In this document: positions 1 through 32,052 of the stretch, in pieces
Layout: each line of letters starts with the position of its first letter
Numbering within the stretch: the first letter of the stretch is position 1
Origin: a virus
Lineage: Duplodnaviria; Heunggongvirae; Uroviricota; Caudoviricetes
Strand: one strand, 5' to 3'
DNA length: 32,052 nt
IMG/VR virus record: IMGVR_UViG_2548876861_000008
The notes under the pieces: model-generated
Database searches by the model: none
What the model saw: the letters and a program-made list of their open reading frames with translations, nothing else
Told to the model about the DNA's origin: nothing
Position numbers and translations under genes: made by a program

Positions 1-1011
1 TTATAACGTCACTCCGCCTTTTAGTGGATTCAGAGCGACGGCATTTTGCAGATAGTCAGGCGCAAGGTGCGCATAGGCCATCGTCTGCTGAATGCTCGCA
101 TGTCCCAGAATCTGTTGCAGTGCGATTATATTGCCCCCATTCATCATGAAATGGCTTGCGAATGTATGCCGCAGGATGTGGGTTGCCTGATTGGGTGGTA
201 TATCAGGTTTCACTCTGCGTAAAATCCCGCAAAATTTCTCATAATCAACTTTGAATAATTTGGCGCTGGCCTCCTCTTTAACTTTTTTCTCCAGTTCCTC
301 AGAAATCGGCACGGTTCGCTTTTTACCGTTTTTGGTTTTCAGGAAGGTAACCCTGCAATTTGTAATCTGTGCTGGTTTTAGCGTGGCAACTTCCGTCCAT
401 CTTCCTCCAGTGCTCAGACATAAAAGCGCGACAAGTAAGTCATCACCAGCCAAAACATTTAACAGTTTTTCGATTTCTGCTTTTTCCAGGAACGTCATTT
501 CAGGGTTGGCCTCCGCCAGTGGCGGCAGTCCGTGAATTGGGTGTTGCCCGGAAAATTCATCCAATTGAATTAATTTTGTGAACATGCCGGATAATCGGTA
601 CATGTCACGGTTTATCGTTGCGGCACTGATACCATCACGTAGTCGCATGGAACGATAATCCATCAAAGCCCTTTTGCTCATCCTGCTCACTGGTATATCA
701 CCTATGCCGCTGATGGTTTTGAGTAGATGATTAAACTCTTTTGTTCCATGCTCGTGGTTTTGCCCGTGATATTTCCACCAGATGTCCAGCAACTCACTCA
801 AAGTCCGGCGGTCTGCTCGCTGGCCTCCCCATTCTTTCTGACTGGCATTGGCGATTGTGTATCGCTCAAATGCTAGTGCTTCAGCTTTTCTTTCGAATTT
901 CCTGCGGATGCGTTTTCCGTCGCGACCGCGAGGTCTAATGTCCACTTCATAGCGACCATCATCGAGCTTCTTAATTGCCATAAGAAAGCCCTCCGGCGCT
1001 GTATTCACCAT
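1..1011 (-). CDS. int: P2-family tyrosine integrase; window begins at its stop codon
   Basis: 336-aa ORF; C-terminal catalytic region (HILRHTFASH ... MAYAHL) typical of tyrosine recombinases; sits at prophage end next to the C repressor as in P2. Confidence 0.9.
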   Translation of the reverse strand: MVNTAPEGFLMAIKKLDDGRYEVDIRPRGRDGKRIRRKFERKAEALAFERYTIANASQKEWGGQRADRRTLSELLDIWWKYHGQNHEHGTKEFNHLLKTISGIGDIPVSRMSKRALMDYRSMRLRDGISAATINRDMYRLSGMFTKLIQLDEFSGQHPIHGLPPLAEANPEMTFLEKAEIEKLLNVLAGDDLLVALLCLSTGGRWTEVATLKPAQITNCRVTFLKTKNGKKRTVPISEELEKKVKEEASAKLFKVDYEKFCGILRRVKPDIPPNQATHILRHTFASHFMMNGGNIIALQQILGHASIQQTMAYAHLAPDYLQNAVALNPLKGGVTL

Positions 1012-1926: not shown

Positions 1927-2423
1927 CAGTGATGACGCTCAATCTCGTTGAAAAACAGCCAGCAGCTATGCGCCGGATAATTGGCAAGCATCTTGCCGTC
2001 CCTCGCTGGCAGGATACATGTGATTATTATAATCAGATGATGGAACGCGAACGGCTAACGGTTTGCTTCCATGCGCAGTTAAAACAGCGTCACGCAACGA
2101 TGCGTTTTGAAGAAATGAACGACGTCGAACGTGAACGGCTGGTTTGTGCAATTGATGAATTGCGTGGGGCATTCTCAAAACGCCGTCAGGTTGGCGCAAG
2201 TGAGTATGCATATATTAGTTTTTTAACAGTCAGTCAGCGTCGTACTTTATTTATGCATGCCGGATTGACTGAAAAAGAATTCAACCAGCCATACTGGCGA
2301 ATTAATGAAGAATCATGTTACTGGCGTGATGCTTTATTCCGTGCATTACGTGAATTATTCAGCCTGTTTGAGTATGCACCGACAATTCTGACGTCGGTAA
2401 AACCAGAGCAATATCTGCATTAA
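1923..2423 (+). CDS. B: replication protein B (helicase-loader-like)
   Basis: 166-aa ORF, same length and operon position as P2 gpB. Confidence 0.7.
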   Translation: MTVMTLNLVEKQPAAMRRIIGKHLAVPRWQDTCDYYNQMMERERLTVCFHAQLKQRHATMRFEEMNDVERERLVCAIDELRGAFSKRRQVGASEYAYISFLTVSQRRTLFMHAGLTEKEFNQPYWRINEESCYWRDALFRALRELFSLFEYAPTILTSVKPEQYLH

Positions 2424-2486
2424 GTAATTAACCAGAGTTTTTAACGCACTTAATCGTGCGGGGCTTCTTTTTGCCTGGAGAAAGTC

Positions 2487-2711
2487 ATGCATACAGTTTC
2501 TGAAAATCAGTGCGGTAAATACGCATTACTGCTGCAACAGGCCAGAACCGAAGCACAGGCCGACGCTGCGACGCGCTTTTCTTCTCATCTTGACGCCATG
2601 ATTCGCCACATCACAAAGGCGGAGTTATCCCGCGTGGAGATAGTCGAGCTGCTCAGTCAGGAGTCGGAAAAATTTCACAATATCGGATTGTCTCGTGGGG
2701 AGGTGCTTTGA
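2487..2711 (+). CDS. early hypothetical protein (P2 orf80 position)
   Basis: 74-aa ORF in early operon, stop overlaps next start. Confidence 0.45.
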
Positions 2712-3013
2712 TGTCCTGTTCTCATTCAGTTGTATTACTGAATAACGCCTTAAAAATCGCCGTTATGAAAAATGGCGATTTATCTCTTATTCAACTTGGT
2801 CTTGATAAAGAAAAACGCGAAATAACTGAGTCTGTTATCGCGATTTATCAGAACGAATTAAATCTCCTGTCTGATGTGGTCAATTTACTTGTTAAACGCG
2901 CTGTATTTCACAAGAAAATCTCCTCCGTGGATGAACTGACAAAATTAACGACAGAAATTGCCAGCTATTGCGCTGATGAATTTAAAAAACTTAACGACAA
3001 AAGGAGCTGGTAA
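2708..3013 (+). CDS. early hypothetical protein (P2 orf81 position)
   Basis: 101-aa ORF, translationally coupled to neighbours. Confidence 0.45.
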
Positions 3014-3237
3014 TGCCGGACAACGTAGATTTTATTCAGGAACAACAGGCTGAATTACTGGAGCGCCAGATTAACGCGGCAAGGGTAAAACATTACGGTG
3101 CTTCTGCGCTGGTTTGCGAAGAGTGTGACGCGCCAATACCTGCTGCACGTCGTGCGGCTTATCCGTCAGCCACGCGTTGTGTTTCCTGTCAGTCAGTCTT
3201 TGAAGCAAAAAACAAACATTACCGGAGAACGGCATGA
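3013..3237 (+). CDS. TraR/DksA-family C4 zinc-finger protein (P2 orf82 position)
   Basis: 74-aa ORF with CxxC...CxxC (CEECDAPIP...RCVSCQ) arrangement. Confidence 0.6.
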   Translation: MPDNVDFIQEQQAELLERQINAARVKHYGASALVCEECDAPIPAARRAAYPSATRCVSCQSVFEAKNKHYRRTA

Positions 3238-3509
3238 GTATTCGTATTGAAATTGGCGAACATTATGTCGTTACCAGTGACAGCTTTCAGTTTATTCTCC
3301 ACGAGAAAAAGAGAGCTGAAAGCGGTAAAAACGCCGGTCAGGAATGGCTGTCGGTGGTTGGTTATTACCCGAAATTAAGCCAGCTCGTTTCCGGCCTGAT
3401 GCATCACGATATTCTGACCGGAAGCGCAAAGTCTTTTGCTGATTTAAACGCGCAGGTTGAGCAACTCAGCAAGCGTTGTTCAGAGGCTTTTGGCTCATAT
3501 GGCCGTTAA
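3234..3509 (+). CDS. early hypothetical protein (P2 orf83 position)
   Basis: 91-aa ORF immediately upstream of gpA. Confidence 0.45.
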   Translation: MSIRIEIGEHYVVTSDSFQFILHEKKRAESGKNAGQEWLSVVGYYPKLSQLVSGLMHHDILTGSAKSFADLNAQVEQLSKRCSEAFGSYGR

Positions 3510-5775
3510 AGCCTCCGGGCGTTTTGTCCCTCCGTCAGCATTTGCCGCAGGCACCGGTAAGACGTTTACCGGTGCTTATGCATGGAACGCGCCACGCGAG
3601 GCCGTCGGGCGCGAAAGACCCCTTACACGTGACGAGATGCGTCAGGTGCAAGGTGTTTTATCCACGATTAACCGCCTGCCTTACTTTTTGCGCTCTCTGT
3701 TTACTTCACGCTATGACTACATCCGGCGCAATAAAAGCCCGGTGCACGGGTTTTATTTCCTCACATCCACTTTTCAGCGTCGTTTATGGCCGCGCATTGA
3801 GCGTGTGAATCAGCGCCATGAAATGAACACCGACGCGTCGTTACTGTTTCTGGCAGAGCGTGACCACTATGCGCGCCTGCCGGGAATGAATGACAAGGAG
3901 CTGAAAAAGTTTGCTGCCCGTATCTCATCGCAGCTTTTCATGATGTATGGGGAACTCAGCGATGCCTGGGTGGATGCGCATGGCGAAAAAGAATCGCTGT
4001 TTACGGATGAGGCGCAGGCTCACCTGTATGGTCATGTTGCTGGCGCTGCACGTGCTTTCAATATTTCCCCGCTCTACTGGAAAAAATACCGTAAAGGGCA
4101 GATGACCACGAGGCAGGCATATTCTGCCATTGCCCGTCTGTTTAACGATGAGTGGTGGACTCATCAGCTTAAAGGCCAGCGTATGCGCTGGCATGAGGCG
4201 TTACTGATTGCTGTCGGGGAGGTCAATAAAGACCGTTCTCCTTATGCCAGTAAACATGCCATTCGTGATGTGCGTGCACGCCGCCAGGCAAATCTGGAAT
4301 TTCTTAAATCGTGTGACCTCGAAAACAGGGAAACCGGCGAGCGCATCGACCTTATCAGTAAGGTGATGGGCAGTATTTCTAATCCTGAAATTCGCCGGAT
4401 GGAGCTGATGAACACCATCGCCGGTATTGAGCGTTACGCCGCCGCAGAGGGTGATGTGGGGATGTTTATCACGCTGACCACGCCGTCAAAGTATCACCCG
4501 ACACGTCAGGTCGGAAAAGGAGAAAGTAAAACCGTCCAGCTTAATCACGGCTGGAACGATGAGGCATTTAATCCAAAGGATGCGCAGCGTTATCTCTGCC
4601 GTATCTGGAGCCTGATGCGCACGGCATTCAAGGATAATGATTTACAGGTCTACGGTTTGCGAGTCGTCGAGCCACACCACGACGGAACGCCGCACTGGCA
4701 TATGATGCTTTTTTGTAATCCACGCCAGCGTAACCAGATTATTGAAATCATGCGTCGCTACGCGCTCAAAGAGGATGGCGACGAAAGAGGAGCTGCGCGA
4801 AACCGTTTTCAGGCAAAACACCTTAACCGGGGCGGTGCTGCGGGATATATCGCGAAATACATTTCAAAAAACATCGACGGCTATGCACTGGATGGTCAGC
4901 TCGATAACGATACCGGCAGGCCGCTGAAAGACACTGCCGCGGCTGTTACCGCATGGGCGTCAACGTGGCGCATTCCGCAATTTAAAACTGTTGGCCTGCC
5001 GACAATGGGGGCTTACCGTGAACTACGCAAATTACCTCGCGGCGTCAGCATTGCTGATGAGTTTGACGAACGCGTCGAGGCTGCACGCGCTGCCGCAGAC
5101 AGTGGCGATTTTGCGCTGTATATCAGCGCGCAGGGTGGGGCAAATGTCCCGCGCGATTGTCAGACTGTCAGGGTCGCCCGTAGTCCGTCGGATGAAGTTA
5201 ACGAGTACGAGGAAGAAGTCGAGAGAGTGGTCGGCATTTACGCGCCGCATCTCGGCGCGCGTCATATTCATATCACCAGAACGACGGACTGGCGCATTGT
5301 TCCGAAAGTGCCGGTCGTTGAGCCTTTGACTGTAAAAAGCGGCATCGCCGCGCCTCGGAGTCCTGTCAATAACTGTGGAAAGCTCACCGGTGGTGATACT
5401 TCGTTACCGGCTCCCACACCTTCTGAGCACGCCGCAGCAGTGCTTAATCTGGTTGATGACGGTGTTATCGAATGGAATGACCCGGAGGTCGTGAGGGCGC
5501 TCAGGGGCGCATTAAAACACGGACTGAGAACACCAAATCGTCAGCAAAGAGCCGGAAGCCCGTTAAAACCGCATGAAATAGCGCCATCGGCCAGAATGAC
5601 CCGGTCGGAACGAATGCAAATTACCCGTATCCGCGTTGACCTTGCTCAGAACGGTATCAGACCGCAGCGATGGGAGCTTGAGGCGCTGGCGCGTGGCGCG
5701 ACCGTAAATTATGACGGGAAAAAATTCACGTATCCGGTCGCTAATGAGTGGTCGGTTTTTTCAGTTAAACAATAA
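3499..5775 (+). CDS. A: rolling-circle replication initiator gpA (nickase)
   Basis: Long ORF; HWHMMLF motif and AAGYIAKYISKN tyrosine region typical of the phage A / phiX174-A initiator superfamily; start at 3499 (MAVKASG) gives about 758 aa, close to recalled P2 A; upstream in-frame ATG at 3457 is also possible. Confidence 0.85.
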   Translation: MAVKASGRFVPPSAFAAGTGKTFTGAYAWNAPREAVGRERPLTRDEMRQVQGVLSTINRLPYFLRSLFTSRYDYIRRNKSPVHGFYFLTSTFQRRLWPRIERVNQRHEMNTDASLLFLAERDHYARLPGMNDKELKKFAARISSQLFMMYGELSDAWVDAHGEKESLFTDEAQAHLYGHVAGAARAFNISPLYWKKYRKGQMTTRQAYSAIARLFNDEWWTHQLKGQRMRWHEALLIAVGEVNKDRSPYASKHAIRDVRARRQANLEFLKSCDLENRETGERIDLISKVMGSISNPEIRRMELMNTIAGIERYAAAEGDVGMFITLTTPSKYHPTRQVGKGESKTVQLNHGWNDEAFNPKDAQRYLCRIWSLMRTAFKDNDLQVYGLRVVEPHHDGTPHWHMMLFCNPRQRNQIIEIMRRYALKEDGDERGAARNRFQAKHLNRGGAAGYIAKYISKNIDGYALDGQLDNDTGRPLKDTAAAVTAWASTWRIPQFKTVGLPTMGAYRELRKLPRGVSIADEFDERVEAARAAADSGDFALYISAQGGANVPRDCQTVRVARSPSDEVNEYEEEVERVVGIYAPHLGARHIHITRTTDWRIVPKVPVVEPLTVKSGIAAPRSPVNNCGKLTGGDTSLPAPTPSEHAAAVLNLVDDGVIEWNDPEVVRALRGALKHGLRTPNRQQRAGSPLKPHEIAPSARMTRSERMQITRIRVDLAQNGIRPQRWELEALARGATVNYDGKKFTYPVANEWSVFSVKQ

Positions 5776-5976: not shown

Positions 5977-6921
5977 ATGCCAACAGTAGTTTCACTTTTT
6001 TCTGGATGCGGTGGTTCCGATGCGGGGGTTTTGAGAGCCGGCTTTGATGTGCTTATGGCCAACGATATCTTGCCGTATGCGCGCGATGTTTATATTGCCA
6101 ATCATCCAGAAACTGATTACATATTAGGCAATATTGCTGATGTAACTACTTTTCCTAAATCTGATTTGCTGGTAGGTTGTTATCCATGTCAGGGATTCAG
6201 CCAGGGTGGTGCGCGTAAAGCCGATCGAAAAATTAATACTCTTTATTTAGAGTTTGCTAGAGCTTTAAACAATATAAAGCCTAAAGCTTTTATAGTAGAA
6301 AACGTGTCTGGTATGGTTAGAAAAAATTTTGAGCATTTGTTATCTGACCAGATCAGGGTTTTTACTGAAGCAGGTTATACTGTTTCCGCAAAAGTTTTAA
6401 ATGCGGCTGAATATGGAGTAGCGCAGGAAAGAAAAAGAATATTTATCGTAGGAATCCGTAATGATTTCAAAGTTAAGTACGAGTTCCCTCAGCCAACTCA
6501 TGGGCCAGCAACTGGCGTCAACTATGTTACTATTAAAGATGCTATAGGGCATTTACCTGAATGGCCAGAAGGTGAATTTTATGATATGGGATTCCATTGG
6601 TATTATATGTCTCGCAATCGTCGCCAGGATTGGGATCAAATTTCAAAGACAATAGTTGCTAATGCAAGGCATATGCCGTTGCATCCTGTCAGTCCTCCGA
6701 TGGAGAAAGTAAGAACTGATGAATGGAGATTTGTTGAGGATCGGAGAGCTCGCAGATTCAGTTTTCGAGAGGCAGCACTATTACAAGGGTTTGAGGATCT
6801 AGTGTTTCCAGAAACAAATGCTGCAAGTCTTGGCATGAAATACACGGTGGTTGGTAATGCAGTGCCTCCGCCGCTTTTTGAAGCTGTAACGAAGGCATTG
6901 CCAATAGAATTATGGGATTGA
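5977..6921 (+). CDS. DNA (cytosine-5)-methyltransferase (Dcm-like C5-MTase)
   Basis: 314 aa; motif I FSGCGG, motif IV PCQGFS, motif VI ENV (FIVENVSGM), QERKR, C-terminal GNAVPPP motif X. Confidence 0.85.
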   Translation: MPTVVSLFSGCGGSDAGVLRAGFDVLMANDILPYARDVYIANHPETDYILGNIADVTTFPKSDLLVGCYPCQGFSQGGARKADRKINTLYLEFARALNNIKPKAFIVENVSGMVRKNFEHLLSDQIRVFTEAGYTVSAKVLNAAEYGVAQERKRIFIVGIRNDFKVKYEFPQPTHGPATGVNYVTIKDAIGHLPEWPEGEFYDMGFHWYYMSRNRRQDWDQISKTIVANARHMPLHPVSPPMEKVRTDEWRFVEDRRARRFSFREAALLQGFEDLVFPETNAASLGMKYTVVGNAVPPPLFEAVTKALPIELWD

Positions 6922-6928
6922 TAAGCTA

Positions 6929-7924
6929 TTAAGGCTCTGGATTTAATGTATAAAGCTCTTCCTCAAATTCGCGAAACCAATCAGAGGTAGTTATCGCTTC
7001 CCATTGGTTTGCCTTATCAAGTAGATATATGATTCTCAACCTATCTAATAATAATACCCCAGCGGTTGCGTGTGTGCTTACCCATTCGCCATTTGCTTCC
7101 CGATAGAAAACAGGCGTGAACATTGTTGATGGATGCTGGAACGCAATTTGGAAATAGGTGGTCAGTTTTAACACGTTAGCCTCTAATGTTTTGCTTGGCC
7201 ACCCTGTTTCTTGTGCACCACATTGACCAAGAATTCCATAGTTGCTAGTTTGACCATCAGGAAATTCCACTGTAGCAATTAGGTCAAACCCGGCATCACC
7301 AGATGTGGGAGCTCTATTTATTTCCCTTGTGTTTAAACTACAAACTCCAAGATCTTTTCCTAAAGTTTGTAGAGCTGTCCGAAGATTTGTTCCATAATAA
7401 TTTTGCCTATCATCGGAGTTAGCATCAAAAATTCTTACGGTGCCATGTGCAGGTAAGAGAGAAATCATTGCTACTTTACATACTCTGGCAAAGCTCTTTG
7501 CCCAACGTTGTGCTGCTCCTTTAATCGACTTAAAGGATCTAAGTCTAGAGCAGCAAAGAAGAAAAACATATATTCGTTGTTGTTGGTTTAGATTTTCTTT
7601 AATAATTATCTCATCACCTGAAATTATAAATGGATATATTTTGCCAAGAGCACTTTCTCTATATTCGAGTTGTGTCCAAACATCTTCGAGTTGCTCTTCA
7701 AAACGATCATTTCTCTCAGCGTCTCCATTAATTTCTTCTTCAGAATTACATTCTTCATCAATTTCTTCAACGCTTGTTATGCCGAATTTTCTTACTGAAT
7801 CTAAATCATTTTTATGTAGTGAGTTACGTCCGGTATAATTAATTACCGTGAGTAACTCGGCTAAATCTGCAAACAAATGAGGAGAGTTGGGATGCATAAC
7901 TCCTACTTCAAAAGTCATCATCAC
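6929..7924 (-). CDS. hypothetical protein, second gene of cargo operon; function unknown
   Basis: 331-aa ORF on minus strand, 17-bp overlap with upstream gene; AT-rich codon usage unlike the phage backbone; no motif I can assign. Confidence 0.6.
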   Translation of the reverse strand: MMMTFEVGVMHPNSPHLFADLAELLTVINYTGRNSLHKNDLDSVRKFGITSVEEIDEECNSEEEINGDAERNDRFEEQLEDVWTQLEYRESALGKIYPFIISGDEIIIKENLNQQQRIYVFLLCCSRLRSFKSIKGAAQRWAKSFARVCKVAMISLLPAHGTVRIFDANSDDRQNYYGTNLRTALQTLGKDLGVCSLNTREINRAPTSGDAGFDLIATVEFPDGQTSNYGILGQCGAQETGWPSKTLEANVLKLTTYFQIAFQHPSTMFTPVFYREANGEWVSTHATAGVLLLDRLRIIYLLDKANQWEAITTSDWFREFEEELYTLNPEP

Positions 7925-9068
7925 CTCTGCTATTTTTCTCTGCTATTTCAGAACCTATAAGCTTAATATGTTTATTGATTCTTCGTGCTACTTCATGGGC
8001 CTGTCTATCATACTCTACCGTGGCAACCATGCCTGCTGCATCTATCAAAGCTGCTTCAACTTGATAAAGTAACTGGAGAAAGTCCTTAGTAATATCAGAT
8101 GTCAATTGATAGGCAACTGCGAGTGGAGCCCCCATTCGGAATTGCTCCAATGCCTTAGGGCTACTTACAACAGCAGCTAGTTCTCTTAAATTACGTGATT
8201 CTCCTACACGAGTTTTTTTATCCTCGCCTTTTTTATATAACCATTCAGTTAGTTCTTTTATTTCTTTGTTCTTTAAACTCTTAGAATTGATGATAGGATG
8301 ACTTGGTATTGTGTCTCCATCGTCTTCGATTGAAACTCCGACAAACTGGCCTAACCGCTCATCAGCAAGTGCTGTTGATAATACTGAAAATTTAATCGTT
8401 TCTTCATCTAGCTTTTCAATACCATAAAAATCATTTTTTTTAATGATTTCATACACCGCTAAAGCGTCTAGGTTACGCTTGATATGATCCCTACGACTGC
8501 CAATAGCTCTGGCAACCTCATAGTAGCGTAGCATTGGATCCAGATTTGCATTGGTATAATCAAAAAGCTGTTTAATATATCGAGCTTTTGATAAGGGTTC
8601 CCATTGTTTGACACCAGTAATATGTCTGAAACCAAGGTACGGAAGAATCTCTTCTCTTGTTTGGCGCTCAATGACAGGAACACGATCGACCGTATGTTTT
8701 GCATTTGATGCAATTTCTCGTAGTCGAGCACTTGGATTTTCACATAGTGTCGGATCGCGTAATAATTTGACCGCGGATAGGCGACGGTTTCCTTCAACTA
8801 CAATGTACTTCCCCGGCGCTCCACTATCAGGAATGACAATCAATGGTTCTCCAGGGAAAAAACCATTTTCCGCAATAGCACTCATTAGGTCTTCGATAGA
8901 TGTTGAGGTTGCTATGTAGTTAATCATTCCCAATTGGTCACGAGACACGCCTTCAGGAAGTCTTGGGTTTTCTGTGTCAAGTTCCAAATCATCTAGCGGA
9001 ACATAAAGTATTTCTGAATCAGCAATCATCTGGATCTCCGTTGAACATGTCCACGAGAAGGAGCACAA
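7908..9068 (-). CDS. ParB/Srx-fold (ParB N-terminal-like) domain protein, first gene of cargo operon
   Basis: 386-aa ORF; N-terminal region KYIVVEGNRRLSAVKLL resembles the ParB GxxRxxA box; long alpha-helical-looking C-terminal region. Confidence 0.6.
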   Translation of the reverse strand: MCSFSWTCSTEIQMIADSEILYVPLDDLELDTENPRLPEGVSRDQLGMINYIATSTSIEDLMSAIAENGFFPGEPLIVIPDSGAPGKYIVVEGNRRLSAVKLLRDPTLCENPSARLREIASNAKHTVDRVPVIERQTREEILPYLGFRHITGVKQWEPLSKARYIKQLFDYTNANLDPMLRYYEVARAIGSRRDHIKRNLDALAVYEIIKKNDFYGIEKLDEETIKFSVLSTALADERLGQFVGVSIEDDGDTIPSHPIINSKSLKNKEIKELTEWLYKKGEDKKTRVGESRNLRELAAVVSSPKALEQFRMGAPLAVAYQLTSDITKDFLQLLYQVEAALIDAAGMVATVEYDRQAHEVARRINKHIKLIGSEIAEKNSRGDDDF

Positions 9069-17191: not shown

Positions 17192-17604
17192 TGATTGTGC
17201 TGGTCGTGTTGTTATCGCTGGCGGTGACCGGTCTGTTTCTGGTGAAACACAAAAATGCCAGCCTGCGCGCCTCGCTGGACAGGGCGAACAGCGTCGCCAG
17301 TGAACAGCAGACGACCATCACCATGCTGAAAAATCAGCTTCATGTTGCCATCACCAGGGCAGACAAAAACGAGCTGGCGCAGGTGGCACTGCGTCAGGAA
17401 CTGGAGAACGCGGCGAAGCGTGAAGCACAGCGCGAGAAAACCATCACGAGGTTACTGAATGAAAACGAAGATTTTCGCCGCTGGTACGGCGCTGGCCTGC
17501 CTGATGCTGTGCGCCGGTTGCACCAGCGCCCGGCCTGCACCGACGCCAGTGATTGTCGCCAACGCCTGCCCGAAAGTGAGCCTTTGCCCGATGCCGGGCA
17601 GTGA
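17179..17604 (+). CDS. lysB: Rz-like inner-membrane spanin LysB
   Basis: 141 aa, N-terminal TM segment followed by charged helical region. Confidence 0.7.
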   Translation: MSKLMIVLVVLLSLAVTGLFLVKHKNASLRASLDRANSVASEQQTTITMLKNQLHVAITRADKNELAQVALRQELENAAKREAQREKTITRLLNENEDFRRWYGAGLPDAVRRLHQRPACTDASDCRQRLPESEPLPDAGQ

Positions 17605-20583: not shown

Positions 20584-21187
20584 TTCGCGACTGCTGCCGA
20601 CCGGCTCATCACCGCTTGAAGTCGCTGCCGCAAAAGCCTGTGCGGAAATTGAAAAAACGCCGGTCAGTATTCGTGAGCTGTGGAACCCGGACACCTGTCC
20701 GGCAAATCTGCTGCCGTGGCTGGCGTGGTCATTTTCGGTTGACCGCTGGGATGATAAGTGGCCGGAAGCGACAAAACGCGCTGTTATCCGCGATGCGTAT
20801 TTCATTCACTGCCATAAGGGCACTATAGGCGCAATCCGGCGTGTGGTGGAGCCGCTCGGCTATCTGATTGAGGTGAGGGAGTGGTGGCAGCTCAACGAGG
20901 AGCCGGGGACGTTCCGCATCGTTGTTGGCGTGCTTGAGCAGGGTATTACCGAGGAAATGTATCAGGAGCTGGAGCGCCTCGTTGCTGATGCAAAACCGGC
21001 AAGCCGCCATCTGACGGGACTGGCTATCAGTTTAAGTACAACCGGCAACATTTTTGCCGGTGCGGGATGCTATCACGGTGACGCTCTGACGGTTTATCCC
21101 TACACCCCGGAGGCCATTATTGTCGGAGGGGATTATTTCCCGGCCTCGGCCATTCATTTAATTGATAACCTGAGAGTAAACGCATGA
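20576..21187 (+). CDS. I: baseplate/tail protein I
   Basis: 203-aa ORF between J and H; translationally coupled. Confidence 0.8.
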   Translation: MSDSRLLPTGSSPLEVAAAKACAEIEKTPVSIRELWNPDTCPANLLPWLAWSFSVDRWDDKWPEATKRAVIRDAYFIHCHKGTIGAIRRVVEPLGYLIEVREWWQLNEEPGTFRIVVGVLEQGITEEMYQELERLVADAKPASRHLTGLAISLSTTGNIFAGAGCYHGDALTVYPYTPEAIIVGGDYFPASAIHLIDNLRVNA

Positions 21188-22383
21188 CAGTGAAATACTA
21201 CGCCATTCTGACTAATCAGGGCGCAGCACGGCTGGCTAACGCGACGATGCTCGGCAGTAAGCTGAATCTGACGCAAATGGCCGTTGGTGATGCGAATGGT
21301 GTCTTGCCGACACCAGACCCGGCACAGACAAAACTGATTAACCAGAAACGCATCGCGCCGCTGAATCTTCTGAGTGTTGACCCGAACAACCAGAGCCAGA
21401 TTATTGCGGAGCAAATCATCCCTGAGAACGAGGGCGGATTCTGGATCCGTGAGATTGGGCTTTATGATGATGAAGGCGTACTCATTGCGGTGGCGAACTG
21501 CCCGGAAACGTACAAACCGCAGTTGCAGGAAGGCAGTGGTCGTACCCAGACTATCCGCATGATTCTGGTTGTCACGAATACCGAAGCTATCACGCTGAAA
21601 ATCGACCCGTCGGTGGTACTGGCGACCCGTAAATACGTGGATGATGAAGTCCTGGAATTAAAGCTGTATGTGGATGACCAGATGAGAAACCACATTGCCG
21701 CACAGGATCCTCATACCCAGTATGCGCAGAAACATAATCCGACATTTACCGGAGAACCAAAAGCGCCGACGCCTGCCGCAGGAAATAACACCACGCGGAT
21801 TGCGACCACTGAGTTTGTTCAGGCCGCTATTACCGCTCTGATTAACGGTGCGCCAGCCACGCTGGACACACTGAAAGAAATTGCCGCAGCCATTAACAAT
21901 GACCCGAAATTCAGTACCACCATTAACAATGCGCTGTCAGGTAAGCAGCCACTGGATGAGACGCTGACTCATTTGAGTGGAAAGGATGTTGCCGGTCTTC
22001 TCGCATACCTTGGTTTGGGAGAAGCGGCAAAACGGAATGTAGGAACAGGGGAAAATCAGATACCGGACATGACCTCTTTTGCCAGTGGTGATGGATGGAT
22101 GAAATTACCCAACGGGAAAATCCTGCAATATGGTCGTGGTGCGATTACGCCGACATTATCGACGCAAACAATGAGAATTACATTCAGCATCCCTTTTCCT
22201 AAAAAAGTGGACTGCGCCATGCTTACCCATTCTGGTGATGGTGGTGCGCCTTTAGGCGCTGGACGGGGATTCGTGATGACTGCAGAAGGTCCAACACTAA
22301 CCGGTTTTAATTCCGCTTACAGAACTGCATCAACCAGCTCCACAGTATCGATGAATTACAGTTGGTGGGCTGTTGGTGAGTAA
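21184..22383 (+). CDS. H: tail fibre protein H (currently expressed variable C-terminus)
   Basis: 399 aa; N-terminus has the conserved P2-H-like AVANCPETYKPQLQEGSGR region; 3' part lies inside the invertible segment. Confidence 0.85.
   Translation: MTVKYYAILTNQGAARLANATMLGSKLNLTQMAVGDANGVLPTPDPAQTKLINQKRIAPLNLLSVDPNNQSQIIAEQIIPENEGGFWIREIGLYDDEGVLIAVANCPETYKPQLQEGSGRTQTIRMILVVTNTEAITLKIDPSVVLATRKYVDDEVLELKLYVDDQMRNHIAAQDPHTQYAQKHNPTFTGEPKAPTPAAGNNTTRIATTEFVQAAITALINGAPATLDTLKEIAAAINNDPKFSTTINNALSGKQPLDETLTHLSGKDVAGLLAYLGLGEAAKRNVGTGENQIPDMTSFASGDGWMKLPNGKILQYGRGAITPTLSTQTMRITFSIPFPKKVDCAMLTHSGDGGAPLGAGRGFVMTAEGPTLTGFNSAYRTASTSSTVSMNYSWWAVGE
22010..22043. repeat. Left 34-bp inverted repeat / crossover site of the invertible tail-fibre segment (ttggtttgggagaagcggcaaaacggaatgtagg)
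   Basis: Exact reverse-complement copy at 23569..23602, verified base by base. Confidence 0.75.
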
Positions 22384-22394
22384 TTTTATTCAGG

Positions 22395-22847
22395 GTGATT
22401 TATATGAACGAATATGTTTATAGCGCAAGGCATAATGCTTTTTTCCCTGTGGATATGATTGATAAATATAAATCAGAGGGATGGGATTTATCAGACGCAA
22501 AGGAAGTAAATCAAAATATTATCAGTGAGTTTATGGCTGAACCGCCACAAGGAAAAATCCGTATTGCCGGAGATGATGGGCTGCCTGCGTGGGCAGATAT
22601 TCCTCCACCCACGCATGAAGAGCTTATTGAAATTACTGAATCAGAAAGACAGCTACTAATTAACCAGGCTAACGAATACATGAACAGCAAGCAATGGCCT
22701 GGCAAAGCAGCTATTGGTCGTCTGAAAGGTGAGGAACTGGCGCAATATAATTTGTGGCTGGATTACCTGGACGCACTGGAACTGGTGGGTACCTCCAGTG
22801 CTCCAGATATTGAATGGCCTACACCTCCGGTAACTCAGGCCAGCTAA
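22395..22847 (+). CDS. G: tail fibre assembly protein (active-orientation copy)
   Basis: 150-aa ORF directly after H; C-terminus (DIEWPTPP) parallels the convergent minus-strand copy. Confidence 0.75.
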   Translation: MIYMNEYVYSARHNAFFPVDMIDKYKSEGWDLSDAKEVNQNIISEFMAEPPQGKIRIAGDDGLPAWADIPPPTHEELIEITESERQLLINQANEYMNSKQWPGKAAIGRLKGEELAQYNLWLDYLDALELVGTSSAPDIEWPTPPVTQAS

Positions 22848-23244
22848 TCTCAGGAGCCGTCGAAGTGTCGACGGCTTTTACTTCTTTTTTGTAGTCCATC
22901 CAGGCAGATAGTTTTTCTTTATCTGTACTGCTAATATCACCAAGCATTAATTCCACTCGCCAGTCAGCTGTGACATTATCGGCATGAGCAAGTAACTGCA
23001 TTCGCTGATTTTCCGCACGTGCGACATAATCAATCGCCGGGGATTTTAGTACCGGTAAACCATTTTCATCTGACGTGATTAATTTACCCCCTTCCTGCTG
23101 TCCGGCAATTAATTCATTGTATAAGTCTGTACTTATCTCAACAATGTCAGCAGGCATGTCGCTGTTTATACCATCAAAGAAAAAACCATTAGTCGATTTT
23201 GAGAAATAAATCATAGATATACCTATACACCGATTGCTACCCAA
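22819..23244 (-). CDS. alternative tail fibre assembly protein (inverted-orientation copy)
   Basis: 141-aa minus-strand ORF convergent with G and overlapping it by about 29 bp; C-terminus (EISWPELPEV) similar to G. Confidence 0.7.
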   Translation of the reverse strand: MGSNRCIGISMIYFSKSTNGFFFDGINSDMPADIVEISTDLYNELIAGQQEGGKLITSDENGLPVLKSPAIDYVARAENQRMQLLAHADNVTADWRVELMLGDISSTDKEKLSAWMDYKKEVKAVDTSTAPEISWPELPEV

Positions 23245-23602
23245 AAACAGGATCTTTCATATTTGACAATTTCTCCCTGAGATATACCGCCAACAATTAT
23301 ATAGAACTGTGATTTGCTGATATCAGAACAGTTCGCTATGCCCATTGCAGATATACCAGCCACCGACGTTGTATGTGGCACAGCCAACAGCGCAAGTGAA
23401 CGATTTGGGAATGTTACCGGGTAAGTCACCGTATAGTTTGATGCTCCACTGACAATACCCCACTGAATAATCAGACCTGAAGGAAGTTTTTGAAAACCCG
23501 TTGATGAAAGTGAACTGGCAAACGCCGCCATATCCGGAATTTGGTTTTGCCCGTTACCTACATTCCGTTTTGCCGCTTCTCCCAAACCAACGTTTATGAA
23601 AA
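23223..23602 (-). CDS. alternative tail-fibre C-terminal cassette (promoterless; would fuse to H constant region after inversion)
   Basis: Minus-strand ORF begins with the same LGLGEAAKRNVG peptide encoded by the inverted repeat and ends in a different receptor-binding-like tail. Confidence 0.6.
23569..23602. repeat. Right 34-bp inverted repeat / crossover site
   Basis: Reverse complement of 22010..22043. Confidence 0.75.
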
Positions 23603-23657
23603 TGCAGAGATAACGGGCAAGTGGCATCATCTCCGGTTTTTATTCAGGGGGATGCTC

Positions 23658-24251
23658 ATGCTTATTGGCTATGTACGCGTGTCGACAAATGACCAGAACA
23701 CGGAATTGCAGCGTAACGCGCTGAAGTGCGCAGGATGTGAGCTGATTTTTGAGGACAAAATCAGCGGCACGAAGTCCGACAGGCCGGGACTGAAAAAACT
23801 GCTCAGGACATTATCGGAGGGGGATACACTGGTAGTCTGGAAGCTGGACCGGCTGGGGCGTAGTATGCGGCATCTGGTCATTCTGGTTGAGGAACTGCGC
23901 GAACGCGGCGTTAATTTTCGCAGCCTGACAGATGCTATTGATACCAGCACGCCGATGGGGCGTTTTTTCTTTCATGTGATGGGTGCCCTGGCTGAAATGG
24001 AACGAGAGCTCATTGTCGAGCGGACTCGGGCCGGGCTGGAAGCGGCCAGAGCCAAAGGTCGTATTGGTGGCAGACGTCCTAAACTCACCGCGAGTGAGTG
24101 GGAGCAGGCCGGGCGTTTGCTGGCTGCAGGGGAGTCACGTCAACGCGTGGCACTGATTTTTGATATTGGTCTGTCCACGCTCTATAAAAAATTTCCCTCA
24201 TCAGCGACAAAGAATAAATTGTGTCATCCCTTAGCCAACCGGGACAAATAG
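23658..24251 (+). CDS. Gin/Pin/Cin/Hin-family serine DNA invertase
   Basis: MLIGYVRVSTNDQN... N-terminus with catalytic serine, C-terminal HTH; immediately adjacent to right inverted repeat as gin is to the Mu G segment. Confidence 0.85.
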   Translation: MLIGYVRVSTNDQNTELQRNALKCAGCELIFEDKISGTKSDRPGLKKLLRTLSEGDTLVVWKLDRLGRSMRHLVILVEELRERGVNFRSLTDAIDTSTPMGRFFFHVMGALAEMERELIVERTRAGLEAARAKGRIGGRRPKLTASEWEQAGRLLAAGESRQRVALIFDIGLSTLYKKFPSSATKNKLCHPLANRDK

Positions 24252-24310
24252 CCTGACATCTCCGGCACAACTGAAAATATCACTCACCCATTAACCACGG
24301 AGTTAAACGG

Positions 24311-31068: not shown

Positions 31069-31149
31069 ATCCTCAATTTGCCTGCTGCTTAATGCATTGC
31101 AGATGATTTGCTTCCGTTATACTACCGTCAGTTGATAGCGGGAGTATTT

Positions 31150-32052
31150 ATGAATCAATCTTATGGACGGCTGGTCAGTCGGGCGGCGATTGCTGCGACG
31201 GCGATGGCTTCGCTGCTATTGCTGATTAAAATTTTTGCATGGTGGTATACCGGGTCGGTGAGTATTCTCGCCGCGCTGGTGGATTCGCTGGTGGATATCG
31301 GCGCGTCGTTGACGAATTTACTGGTGGTGCGATATTCCCTGCAACCTGCCGACGATAATCACTCGTTTGGTCACGGTAAAGCTGAGTCTCTCGCGGCGCT
31401 GGCGCAAAGTATGTTTATCTCCGGTTCGGCACTATTCCTGTTTTTGACGGGTATTCAACATCTGGTATCTCCAACACCGATGACAGATCCAGGCGTCGGG
31501 GTTATCGTGACAATTGTGGCGCTAATTTGTACGATTATCCTTGTCTCGTTTCAGCGTTGGGTGGTGCGCCGGACGCAAAGCCAGGCGGTGCGGGCTGATA
31601 TGCTACATTACCAGTCTGATGTTATGATGAACGGCGCAATTCTGCTGGCGCTGGGGTTGTCCTGGTACGGCTGGCATCGCGCCGATGCTCTGTTTGCATT
31701 GGGGATCGGCATCTATATTTTATATAGCGCGTTACGCATGGGATATGAGGCGGTACAGTCATTACTGGATCGCGCATTGCCTGATGAGGAACGGCAAGAA
31801 ATTATTGATATCGTGGCTTCCTGGCCGGGTGTTAGCGGCGCTCACGATCTTCGCACGCGGCAGTCAGGGCCGACCCGCTTTATTCAGATTCATTTGGAAA
31901 TGGAAGACTCTCTGCCTTTGGTTCAGGCACATATGGTGGCGGATCAGGTAGAGCAGGCTATTTTACGGCGTTTTCCGGGATCGGATGTGATTATCCATCA
32001 GGACCCCTGTTCCGTCGTACCCAGGGAGGGTAAACGGTCTATGCTTTCATAA
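31150..32052 (+). CDS. fieF: cation-diffusion-facilitator Fe/Zn efflux transporter FieF (YiiP); host chromosomal gene
   Basis: 300-aa protein [38 protein letters not shown]..., recognised as E. coli FieF; window ends at its stop codon. Confidence 0.9.

Follow-up and report, generated by a model that had tools for sequence, protein, structure and literature searches.

A probable two-state DNA inversion switch for tail-fibre specificity in a P2-like prophage

A 32,052-nt stretch of viral DNA (IMG/VR record IMGVR_UViG_2548876861_000008; hereafter the window) very probably carries a two-state switch, set in a P2-like prophage, that changes tail-fibre specificity by site-specific DNA inversion. 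In the proposed mechanism, a Pin/Gin-type invertase (23658-24251) would bind two inverted 26-bp sites (21998-22023 and 23577-23602) and cleave at their central TT dinucleotides, after which the 1581-bp segment would be inverted. The late operon V-W-J-I-H would be read via the constant N-terminus of H into the tip and chaperone pair that is turned towards it: tip A and tfaA as sequenced, tip B and tfaB once the segment is inverted. The pair facing away would be silent, since it has neither promoter nor N-terminus. With either pair expressed according to orientation, a lysogen population would release a mixture of virions bearing two receptor-binding tips.

Tail-fibre switching by an invertase is a textbook mechanism (Mu, P1, e14), and the locus adds little to it scientifically. 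Its practical consequences are modest: i) the switch is seemingly functional, so both tips need to be considered when the host range of this prophage is predicted; and ii) closely related outbreak-type O157:H7 genomes differ here purely by programmed inversion, which should count neither as a structural variant nor as SNPs.

The P2-like setting, inverted repeats and crossover sites

The genes surrounding the cassette are of P2 type: integrase, gpA and V-W-J-I-H, then FI-FII-E-T. Integrase and Phage_GPA domains were found in the window, and the annotation of its relatives names V, W, J, I, H, sheath, tube, E and T. The window is 97.6% identical to P2 over the stretch that starts at the pF promoter and takes in FI and FII. 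The backbone gene order and this identity bear out the original prediction of a P2-like phage, and the host element is, judging from its genes, a P2-like (Peduoviridae) prophage that looks complete. P2 homology resumes in the pF late-promoter region (24231..24310, plus strand), within the annotated activator-binding site, over which the last codons of the invertase extend. Measured against P2, this is where the cassette ends on the right.

The left arm of a perfect 34-bp inverted repeat, TTGGTTTGGGAGAAGCGGCAAAACGGAATGTAGG, lies at 22010-22043, and its sole reverse-complement copy in the window is a perfect 34-bp match at 23557-23590. The repeat and its left arm had been correctly predicted, but the right arm had been placed at 23569-23602. 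That interval is shifted by 12 nt, and its end coincides with the end of a weaker extended inverted repeat (21998-22086 / 23514-23602; 89 nt, 81%). Chance does not account for a perfect inverted repeat of 34 bp in a 32-kb stretch, the expectation by our own estimate being about 1e-12. Other short repeats, for example 22037-22059 / 23005-23027 (74%), were at chance level and were dropped. The segment delimited by the two arms, 22010-23590, measures 1581 bp, in agreement with the predicted distance of about 1.6 kb.

Crossover sites were sought with TTNTCNNAAACCNNGGTTTNNGANAA, which we took to be the Gin/Pin site consensus and afterwards checked against the Mu gix and e14 pix sites. The window has two matches, both at the segment ends, and none of 100 shuffles reached two. 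The left 26-bp site, pixL/gixL-like (21998..22023, plus strand), reads TTCTCGCATACC TT GGTTTGGGAGAA; its central TT is at 22010-22011, exactly where the left repeat arm starts. The right site, pixR-like (23577..23602, minus strand), reads TTTTCATAAACG TT GGTTTGGGAGAA on the minus strand. Each has one mismatch to the consensus and TT as the central dinucleotide, and the two, in inverted orientation, align with the Mu gix sites, to which they are close, and with the e14 pix sites, from which they hardly differ. The repeats hold bona fide gix/pix-like crossover sites. A search by consensus across the 32-kb window for a third site, a shufflon having three or more, found none; the switch is a simple two-state one and not of the multi-inversion shufflon type.

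Alternative fibre tips, their chaperones and the invertase

The constant N-terminal part of H (21184..22009, plus strand; ~275 aa) is a P2 tail-collar fibre N-terminal domain that is common to both fibre versions and does not change between flipped and unflipped genomes. Its first 150 residues match Pfam PF12571 (Phage_tail_fib, E 1.2e-62), and a PDB sequence search with H gave a short match to tail-collar fibre at residues 211-268 (E 9.5e-07). As sequenced, H is a 399-aa ORF (21184-22383) with tip A in frame. Tip A (22009..22383, plus strand; 124 aa) is the C-terminus of H in the expressed position, and tip B (23223..23590, minus strand; 122 aa) is the silent alternative, which has no N-terminus or promoter until inversion. 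Both belong to the gp53-like C-terminal domain family (Gp53-like_C, PF21882; E 1.1e-11 for tip A and 2.2e-15 for tip B) and both ORFs are intact, as anticipated by the claim of two alternative fibre C-termini in opposite orientations. The H reading frame is stop-free either way, giving 399 or 397 aa, and tip B joined to constant H forms an intact 397-aa protein in the O157:H7 strains AC-5 and F8092B. Automatic annotation calls the intact H a pseudogene in one of the two orientations.

The repeat lies inside H and, as had been claimed, encodes a peptide in both orientations, (L/V)GLGEAAKRNVG in either arm. In the silent copy the first codon gives V because its first base falls beyond the crossover; once the segment is inverted, the fused H has LGLGEAAKRNVG at the repeat. 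The two tips are 51% identical, but this identity is confined to the first 69 aa, and beyond ~66-69 residues they diverge completely. Such divergence is compatible with different receptors for tip A and tip B, and the two tips may bind different receptors or give different host ranges. A PDB sequence search found no match for tip A or tip B.

Directly downstream of each tip, in mirror layout, lies a gene for a Caudo_TAP protein (Pfam PF02413), in accordance with the predicted pair of alternative assembly genes. tfaA (22404..22847, plus strand; 147 aa; E 1e-29) goes with tip A; its product is 50% identical to e14 TfaP, and the annotation of relatives makes it a tail fiber assembly protein. tfaB (22819..23214, minus strand; 131 aa; E 1.8e-24) goes with tip B. 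The two genes are convergent with a 29-nt overlap, and their products are 24% identical. A consensus scan placed a terminator-like hairpin with a T-run at 22852..22879 (plus strand), 5 nt past the tfaA stop and within tfaB, which is coded on the opposite strand. In the sequenced orientation the late V-operon transcript might end at this hairpin. The same kind of scan after tfaB, for the flipped state, found no terminator-like site.

The serine invertase predicted just outside the right repeat was found at 23658-24251 (plus strand). It is a 197-aa protein of the Hin/Gin/Cin/Pin group, starting MLIGYVRVST, with Pfam Resolvase (1.9e-52) and HTH_7 (1.1e-12) domains. It is 86.7% identical to e14 PinE and 79.6% to Mu Gin, and its best PDB match is Gin (3uj3, E 1.6e-94). 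Inactivating mutations had been named at the outset as evidence that would count against a working switch; the ORF is full length, and the catalytic serine S9 as well as D64, R65 and R68 are all present in the translated sequence. A longer TTG-started ORF from 23541 was rejected as the invertase, being a mechanical artefact of ORF listing. A scan for sigma-70 promoters gave 2 sites against 3.9 in shuffles, fewer than by shuffling, and so lends no support to a promoter for the invertase.

The 5' end of the invertase gene, where the DNA is well conserved with pinE and gin, contains a candidate recombinational enhancer (23679..23742, plus strand) made up of two Fis-type G-N13-C cores at 23679-23693 and 23728-23742. 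These cores, at +21 and +70 of the gene, are kept in the window gene, pinE and gin, and their starts are 49 bp apart. A G-N13-C pair at +45/+93, from a scan at exactly 48-bp spacing, is not conserved in pinE. The centre of the proximal core is ~96 bp from the centre of pixR, in line with the enhancer-to-site distance of roughly 100 bp in hin (PMC3798978). A Fis-dependent enhancer may reside in the 5' end of the invertase gene.

Both orientations in natural genomes

Among 5426 complete E. coli genomes, with a match counted at ≥80% of the query, the sequenced arrangement was present in 15 and the in-silico flipped arrangement in 11. The closest relatives of the window are prophages of E. coli O157:H7 (99.3%). 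Both junction types also occur in IMG/VR contigs. Exact-match scans of a one-genome-per-species collection with a 50-mer of the invertase and the 34-mer repeat gave no match.

Otherwise identical public prophages carry the cassette in both orientations, which upholds the claim that inversion swaps the tip together with its chaperone. Flipping 22010-23590 in silico converts O157:H7 AC-3 into AC-5 and O157:H7 SS TX 754-1 into F8092B, with 0 mismatches over 9068 bp in each pair. A sister cassette is cleanly inverted between EC4115 and TW14359, which are otherwise identical over 7392 bp. The sister-cassette breakpoints are confined to TTGGTTTGGGAGAAG, the 15-16 bp made up of the central dinucleotide and inner half-site of the crossover site. 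Comparison of these genomes supports the view that the segment inverts with exchange at the site core.

The inversion could be ascribed instead to general homologous recombination, dependent on RecA, between the inverted repeats of 34-89 bp. The perfect 34-bp repeat sits inside the 89-bp, 81% repeat, these lengths being close to the lower limit for RecA-mediated exchange, and the breakpoint in the window-type cassette can be placed only somewhere within the 34 bp. However, the arms of the sister cassette share only 15-16 bp, yet EC4115 and TW14359 are cleanly inverted, with both breakpoints inside these bases; so short a stretch does not support efficient RecA exchange, whereas serine invertases cut there. 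The two orientations are moreover about evenly represented (15 versus 11 genomes), and the coexistence of both forms in EPEC cultures implies rates far above those of homologous recombination on such short repeats. The RecA route is extremely improbable, and inversion by a serine invertase is preferred.

It is also very unlikely that the cassette is a frozen relic, in which the sites or the invertase copy no longer work and the orientation is fixed. The window itself displays one orientation only, and its invertase differs from the SS TX 754-1 / F8092B copy by three residues (K23, L29 and E54) and from the AC-3 / AC-5 copy by six. Many P2-like prophages, besides, are remnants, one in EPEC being truncated upstream of the tail genes. 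But the invertase is full length with all its catalytic residues, and the positions at which it differs from those copies, the three included, are also variable among Gin and PinE. Both 46-bp site regions of the window are the same as those of AC-3 and SS TX 754-1, whose partners are flipped. Both tip and chaperone pairs, furthermore, are intact with clear domains, although a permanently silent pair would be expected to decay. All this favours a switch that still operates.

Which invertase does the flipping is a separate matter. In E. coli genomes that match the 3-kb query at all, the matching places number 2 at the median and 12 at most, and some of them may be Pin-type invertases. If so, flipping in the comparison strains could take place in trans. 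The enzymes of resident prophages might then do most of the work, the adjacent invertase being dispensable or serving other segments. The core site TTGGTTTGGGAGAA is indeed common to e14, Mu-like and P2-like segments, and in Salmonella two DNA invertases reportedly contribute to flagellar phase variation. Cross-action has been documented for PinQ of prophage Qin, which inverts the e14 P segment (PMC12529663). Against a mainly trans-acting system, which is unlikely, stands the cis layout: the invertase lies beside its segment in P2-like phages of E. coli, Salmonella and Klebsiella, and this conservation argues for an enzyme that moves together with its own segment and acts on it. Action in trans would supplement the cis mechanism and not replace it. 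We infer that the segment is flipped by the adjacent invertase and not by a trans-acting paralogue.

A further reading, distinctly unlikely, is that orientation might also alter the phenotype of the lysogen: the prophage tip or chaperone could block the adsorption of other phages, and the invertase might drive host Pin-type segments in trans. A precedent is e14 StfE2, which after PinQ-driven inversion reportedly does so (PMC12529663). H, on the other hand, belongs to a late operon, whose expression is not expected in a lysogen; this speaks against such an effect.

Comparison with known tail-fibre switches

The switch was originally described as Mu G-segment-like with a Gin-family invertase. 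The type of switch and the Gin/Pin class of the enzyme hold, but the nearest kin is the Pin/pix system of e14, not Mu Gin. The window and the Mu G segment have in common: i) a constant part (Sc in Mu) followed by alternative ends (Sv and Sv'), each with its chaperone (U and U'); ii) a 34-bp inverted repeat with a 26-bp gix site and the invertase immediately to the right; and iii) a related repeat-encoded peptide. The Mu segment is larger, ~3 kb with much larger tips, versus 1.58 kb and tips of ~120 aa in the window. Its central dinucleotide is TC and not TT. Both half-sites lie within the perfect repeat in Mu, whereas the window repeat is perfect from the central dinucleotide onwards, leaving outer half-sites that are not the same. 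The phage backbone is that of Mu in one case and of P2 in the other.

The P segment of e14 (PinE, E. coli K-12), whose inversion has been demonstrated (PMC4272514), has the same inner half-site and central TT as the window. The outer half-site of e14 pixR is exactly the right outer half-site of the window, with a nearly identical adjoining flank, and the intergenic region ahead of the invertase start is likewise nearly identical. The layout is also the same, tip-tfa / tfa-tip and then the invertase. In contrast to the window, e14 is a lambdoid remnant whose fibre genes are partly pseudogenes, its tips have no BLASTP match to the window tips, and its repeat identity extends over only ~17 bp versus 34 bp.

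Canonical P2 agrees with the window in the gene order of its backbone and in the N-terminal domain of H. As the original prediction had it, the H-G pair of P2 is single and fixed, a 669-aa H and one G chaperone followed by fun(Z), and both the invertase and the alternative tips are absent. In P2-like phages, nevertheless, an invertible tail-fibre switch has already been annotated, published and experimentally observed. Among the many phages and prophages with such a cassette are pro483, Cartapus, the 'P2' of O157:H43 T22, S164, 500465-2 and the P2 prophages of EPEC E2348/69. Their cassettes sit, like that of the window, at the Z/fun hotspot between H and FI, and have the gene order and the class of invertase in common with it; pro483 is 96.9% identical to the window over 76% of the query. 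A preprint reports that a DNA invertase is often found at the P2 hotspot, with inversion of the adjacent genes.

The EPEC E2348/69 P2-like locus resembles the window in architecture and core site, and its invertase is 81% identical. In this prophage both orientations were seen by sequencing in clonal cultures (Goldberg 2014, PMC4272514). The second half of the cassette is a StfE/TfaE-like pair in pro483, EC4115 and EPEC; in the window its place is taken by another gp53-like tip and a short Tfa. One of the EPEC P2 prophages can adopt four states through its three repeats, whereas the window has two sites only.

A tail-fiber cassette in a P2-like backbone

The DNA of the window is that of a P2-like prophage, with an integrase gene at its start (1-1011, minus strand) and a domain match to the gpA replication protein at 3457-5775. 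In near-identical genomes the flanking tail genes are annotated V, W, J, I, H, then sheath, tube, E and T, and identity to P2 is 97.6% from 24231 onward. A cation-efflux (FieF-type) gene that resembles host DNA lies at the window end (31108-32052) and the integrase at its start; the right prophage end is therefore placed between ~30.6 and 31.1 kb. Canonical P2, as the original prediction had it, carries a single fixed H-G pair: its record shows one 669-aa H, then G, fun(Z) on the opposite strand, the pF promoter and FI, and no invertase. The cassette thus stands in place of the H C-terminus, G and fun(Z). The sequence becomes P2-homologous again at window position 24231 (P2 17572), inside the annotated activator site 17555-17583.

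Further cargo (5977-9068) occupies the P2 gpA-portal hotspot, the old/tin position in P2, and is probably an anti-phage defense island. It includes a C-5 cytosine DNA methylase (5977-6921, plus strand; Pfam PF00145, 5.5e-65; PADLOC DruM-like, 1e-113), a 331-aa ORF (6929-7924, minus strand) with no match in Pfam or PADLOC, and a 386-aa protein (7908-9068, minus strand) that has no Pfam hit and matches PADLOC PD-Lambda-5_A (6.6e-29).

ORF listing and Pfam searches recovered the predicted cassette of two alternative tips and two assembly genes in opposite orientations. The tail-fiber gene H (21184-22383, plus strand, 399 aa) joins a P2 tail-collar-fiber N-terminal domain (PF12571, 1.2e-62) to a Gp53-like_C tip, tip A (PF21882, 1.1e-11), and is followed by the chaperone gene tfaA (22404-22847, plus strand; Caudo_TAP, 1e-29). 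On the minus strand are the second chaperone gene, tfaB (22819-23214; Caudo_TAP, 1.8e-24), and a headless second tip, tip B (23223-23590; Gp53-like_C, 2.2e-15). The tips are 51% identical across the first 69 residues and unrelated beyond that; TfaA and TfaB are 24% identical. The two tfa genes converge, with an overlap of 29 nt. A strong terminator-like hairpin (22852-22879, plus strand) lies immediately 3' of the tfaA stop, within the tfaB coding sequence; a terminator scan found no counterpart downstream of tfaB that would serve the flipped state.

Crossover sites and inversion

Two perfect arms bound a 1581-bp segment. The left arm is at 22010-22043 (TTGGTTTGGGAGAAGCGGCAAAACGGAATGTAGG), as predicted; its sole reverse-complement copy in the window is at 23557-23590, so that the right arm originally given as 23569-23602 had been set 12 nt too far outward. 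That interval ends at the same point, 23602, as a weaker extended repeat (21998-22086/23514-23602; 89 nt, 81% complementary). Chance does not account for a perfect inverted repeat of 34 bp in 32 kb (expectation ~1e-12 by our own estimate). Each arm supplies the inner portion of a 26-bp crossover site of Hin/Gin/Cin/Pin invertase type: TTCTCGCATACC-TT-GGTTTGGGAGAA on the left (21998-22023, plus strand) and TTTTCATAAACG-TT-GGTTTGGGAGAA on the right (23602-23577, minus strand). As read from their own sequence records, Mu gix is TTATCCAAAACC-TC-GGTTTACAGGAA and the e14 sites are CTCTCGAAAACC-TT-GGTTTGGGAGAA and TTTTCATAAACG-TT-GGTTTGGGAGAA; the right sites of e14 and the window are thus identical, and their outer flanks nearly so. 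A degenerate consensus covering the Mu, e14 and window sites matches the window just twice, both times at the segment ends (0 of 100 shuffles had two matches). The cassette is therefore a two-state switch, and a shufflon reading was rejected. The first two bases of the perfect repeat are the central dinucleotide, the point at which enzymes of the serine invertase family cut with a 2-bp stagger. The silent copy reads VGLGEAAKRNVG at the junction and every fused H reads LGLGEAAKRNVG, a one-residue difference that arises because the first base of the codon lies outside the crossover.

A flipped version of 21184-24251 was built in silico, with 22010-23590 inverted, and both versions were searched against 5426 complete E. 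coli genomes. Matches over at least 80% of the length were found in 15 genomes for the window orientation and in 11 for the flipped one, and both sets include single-piece matches with 100% coverage and 99.3% identity. The flipped genomes encode an intact 397-aa H with tip B at its end. The O157:H7 genomes AC-3 and AC-5, which have a common source and carry the locus at identical coordinates, show 0 mismatches over 9068 bp after the equivalent of 22010-23590 is inverted; SS TX 754-1 and F8092B likewise show 0 mismatches over 9068 bp once flipped. As genome comparisons, these two pairs are decisive for flipping. The exact 34-mer also occurs in 23 IMG/VR viral contigs, among which all four junction types are present (H-constant/tip A, H-constant/tip B, invertase side/tip A and invertase side/tip B); one contig has the window arrangement and another the flipped one. 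Orientation differences between otherwise identical public prophages, together with these junctions, support the predicted inversion.

The exchange point in the window-type cassette can be narrowed no further than the 34 bases that are identical between the arms. A sister cassette, in EC4115 and TW14359, agrees with the window in H, tip A, tfaA and the invertase, but its second half is StfE/TfaE-like, as in phage pro483; no more than a 15-16-bp stretch is common to its two arms. Over 7392 bp EC4115 and TW14359 differ by a single inversion and nothing else, and its breakpoints are confined to TTGGTTTGGGAGAAG, the central TT plus the inner half-site. The invertase cuts within this stretch, and homologous recombination would be inefficient over a sequence of such length.

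RefSeq/PGAP calls H a pseudogene ("missing C-terminus"), with a separate gp53-like ORF, in three fetched loci that have the window orientation: L001 (3001-4200), L003 (3001-4200) and L009, from EC4115 (2001-3200), intervals equivalent to window 21184-22383. The call is contradicted by an intact 399-aa frame in L001 and L003. In flipped-orientation genomes H is annotated as a single gene. The pseudogene label is an annotation artefact at invertible genes.

The invertase and a candidate enhancer

The serine invertase predicted to adjoin the right repeat is a 197-aa Resolvase (1.9e-52) and HTH_7 (1.1e-12) protein encoded outside the right arm at 23658-24251, plus strand. A 236-aa TTG-started ORF was discarded as an over-extension by mechanical listing; relatives are annotated from the MLIGYVRVST start. 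The protein shares 86.7% identity with e14 PinE and 79.6% with Mu Gin (over 181 residues), and among solved structures it matches Gin best (3uj3, E 1.6e-94). Inactivating mutations, which would have counted against the prediction, were not found in it: the catalytic residues are complete, with Ser9, Asp64, Arg65 and Arg68 present, and its differences from the SS TX 754-1/F8092B copy (3 residues) and the AC-3/AC-5 copy (6 residues) all fall at positions also variable among Gin and PinE. His106 and Met114, read from the sequence, are in the wild-type state; changes at these positions are known to render Gin Fis-independent. The last codons overlap the P2 pF late-promoter activator-binding site (window 24220-24310), and because the frame reads into the pF region the protein is 13 residues longer than PinE at its C-terminus.

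The invertase gene shows good nucleotide conservation with pinE and gin over its first ~200 nt. Two candidate Fis-type G-N13-C cores at +21 and +70 (window 23679-23693 and 23728-23742) are conserved in all three genes, and the center of the proximal one is ~96 bp away from the right site; for hin, the reported distance between enhancer and hix is ~100 bp (PMC3798978). A scan for exact 48-bp spacing picked another, non-conserved G-N13-C pair. Inversion may depend on Fis and an enhancer. The adjacent invertase is most likely the acting enzyme. Up to 12 places per genome match the query, among genomes with any match, and trans action among Pin-type invertases is documented (PMC12529663).

The switch and its known relatives

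The classical invertase-switch account is the best supported. The invertase, acting at the two sites, would exchange strands at the central TT, and the late operon would read from constant H into either tip A and tfaA or tip B and tfaB, depending on orientation. Tips A and B may differ in receptor specificity; a PDB sequence search found no structural or receptor information on them. By analogy with PinQ/e14 StfE2, inversion might also have a lysogen-level role, which we consider very improbable. The cassette is real, its original interpretation as an invertase switch is correct, and it is probably functional.

The arrangement is already known, from near-identical copies in public genomes and from an experimentally verified homologue. 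Phage records annotated with two tail-fiber proteins, two assembly proteins and a DNA invertase include pro483, Cartapus, the P2-like phage of O157:H43 T22, S164, 500465-2 and Klebsiella KP12. H, tip A, tfaA and the invertase are ~96-97% identical between the window and its relatives pro483 and EC4115, in which the second tip and its chaperone are of another, StfE/TfaE-like kind (L008 3136-4268 in pro483; L009 3636-4771 in EC4115). With a common first half and a different second half, half-cassettes have therefore been exchanged between phages at the crossover sites. According to a 2024 hotspot preprint, the Z/fun hotspot of P2-like phages often harbors a DNA invertase gene, with adjacent genes inverted, and in systematic screens tail-fiber and tail-fiber-assembly genes are among the families enriched at programmed inversions (PMC9881135). 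Using whole-genome sequencing, Goldberg et al. 2014 (PMC4272514) found coexisting orientations in e14, a Mu prophage and two P2-like prophages of EPEC E2348/69, with PCR confirmation for e14 and the four-state P2 inversions; among the entries of their Table S1 is a simple P2 inversion (NC_011601.1 2977580-2979467; repeat TTGTTTGGGAGAAG). At this EPEC E2348/69 locus the genes follow the window layout (tip, tfa, tfa, gp53-like tip, recombinase, sheath, tube). The core is again TT-GGTTTGGGAGAA, and the invertase shares 81% identity with that of the window.
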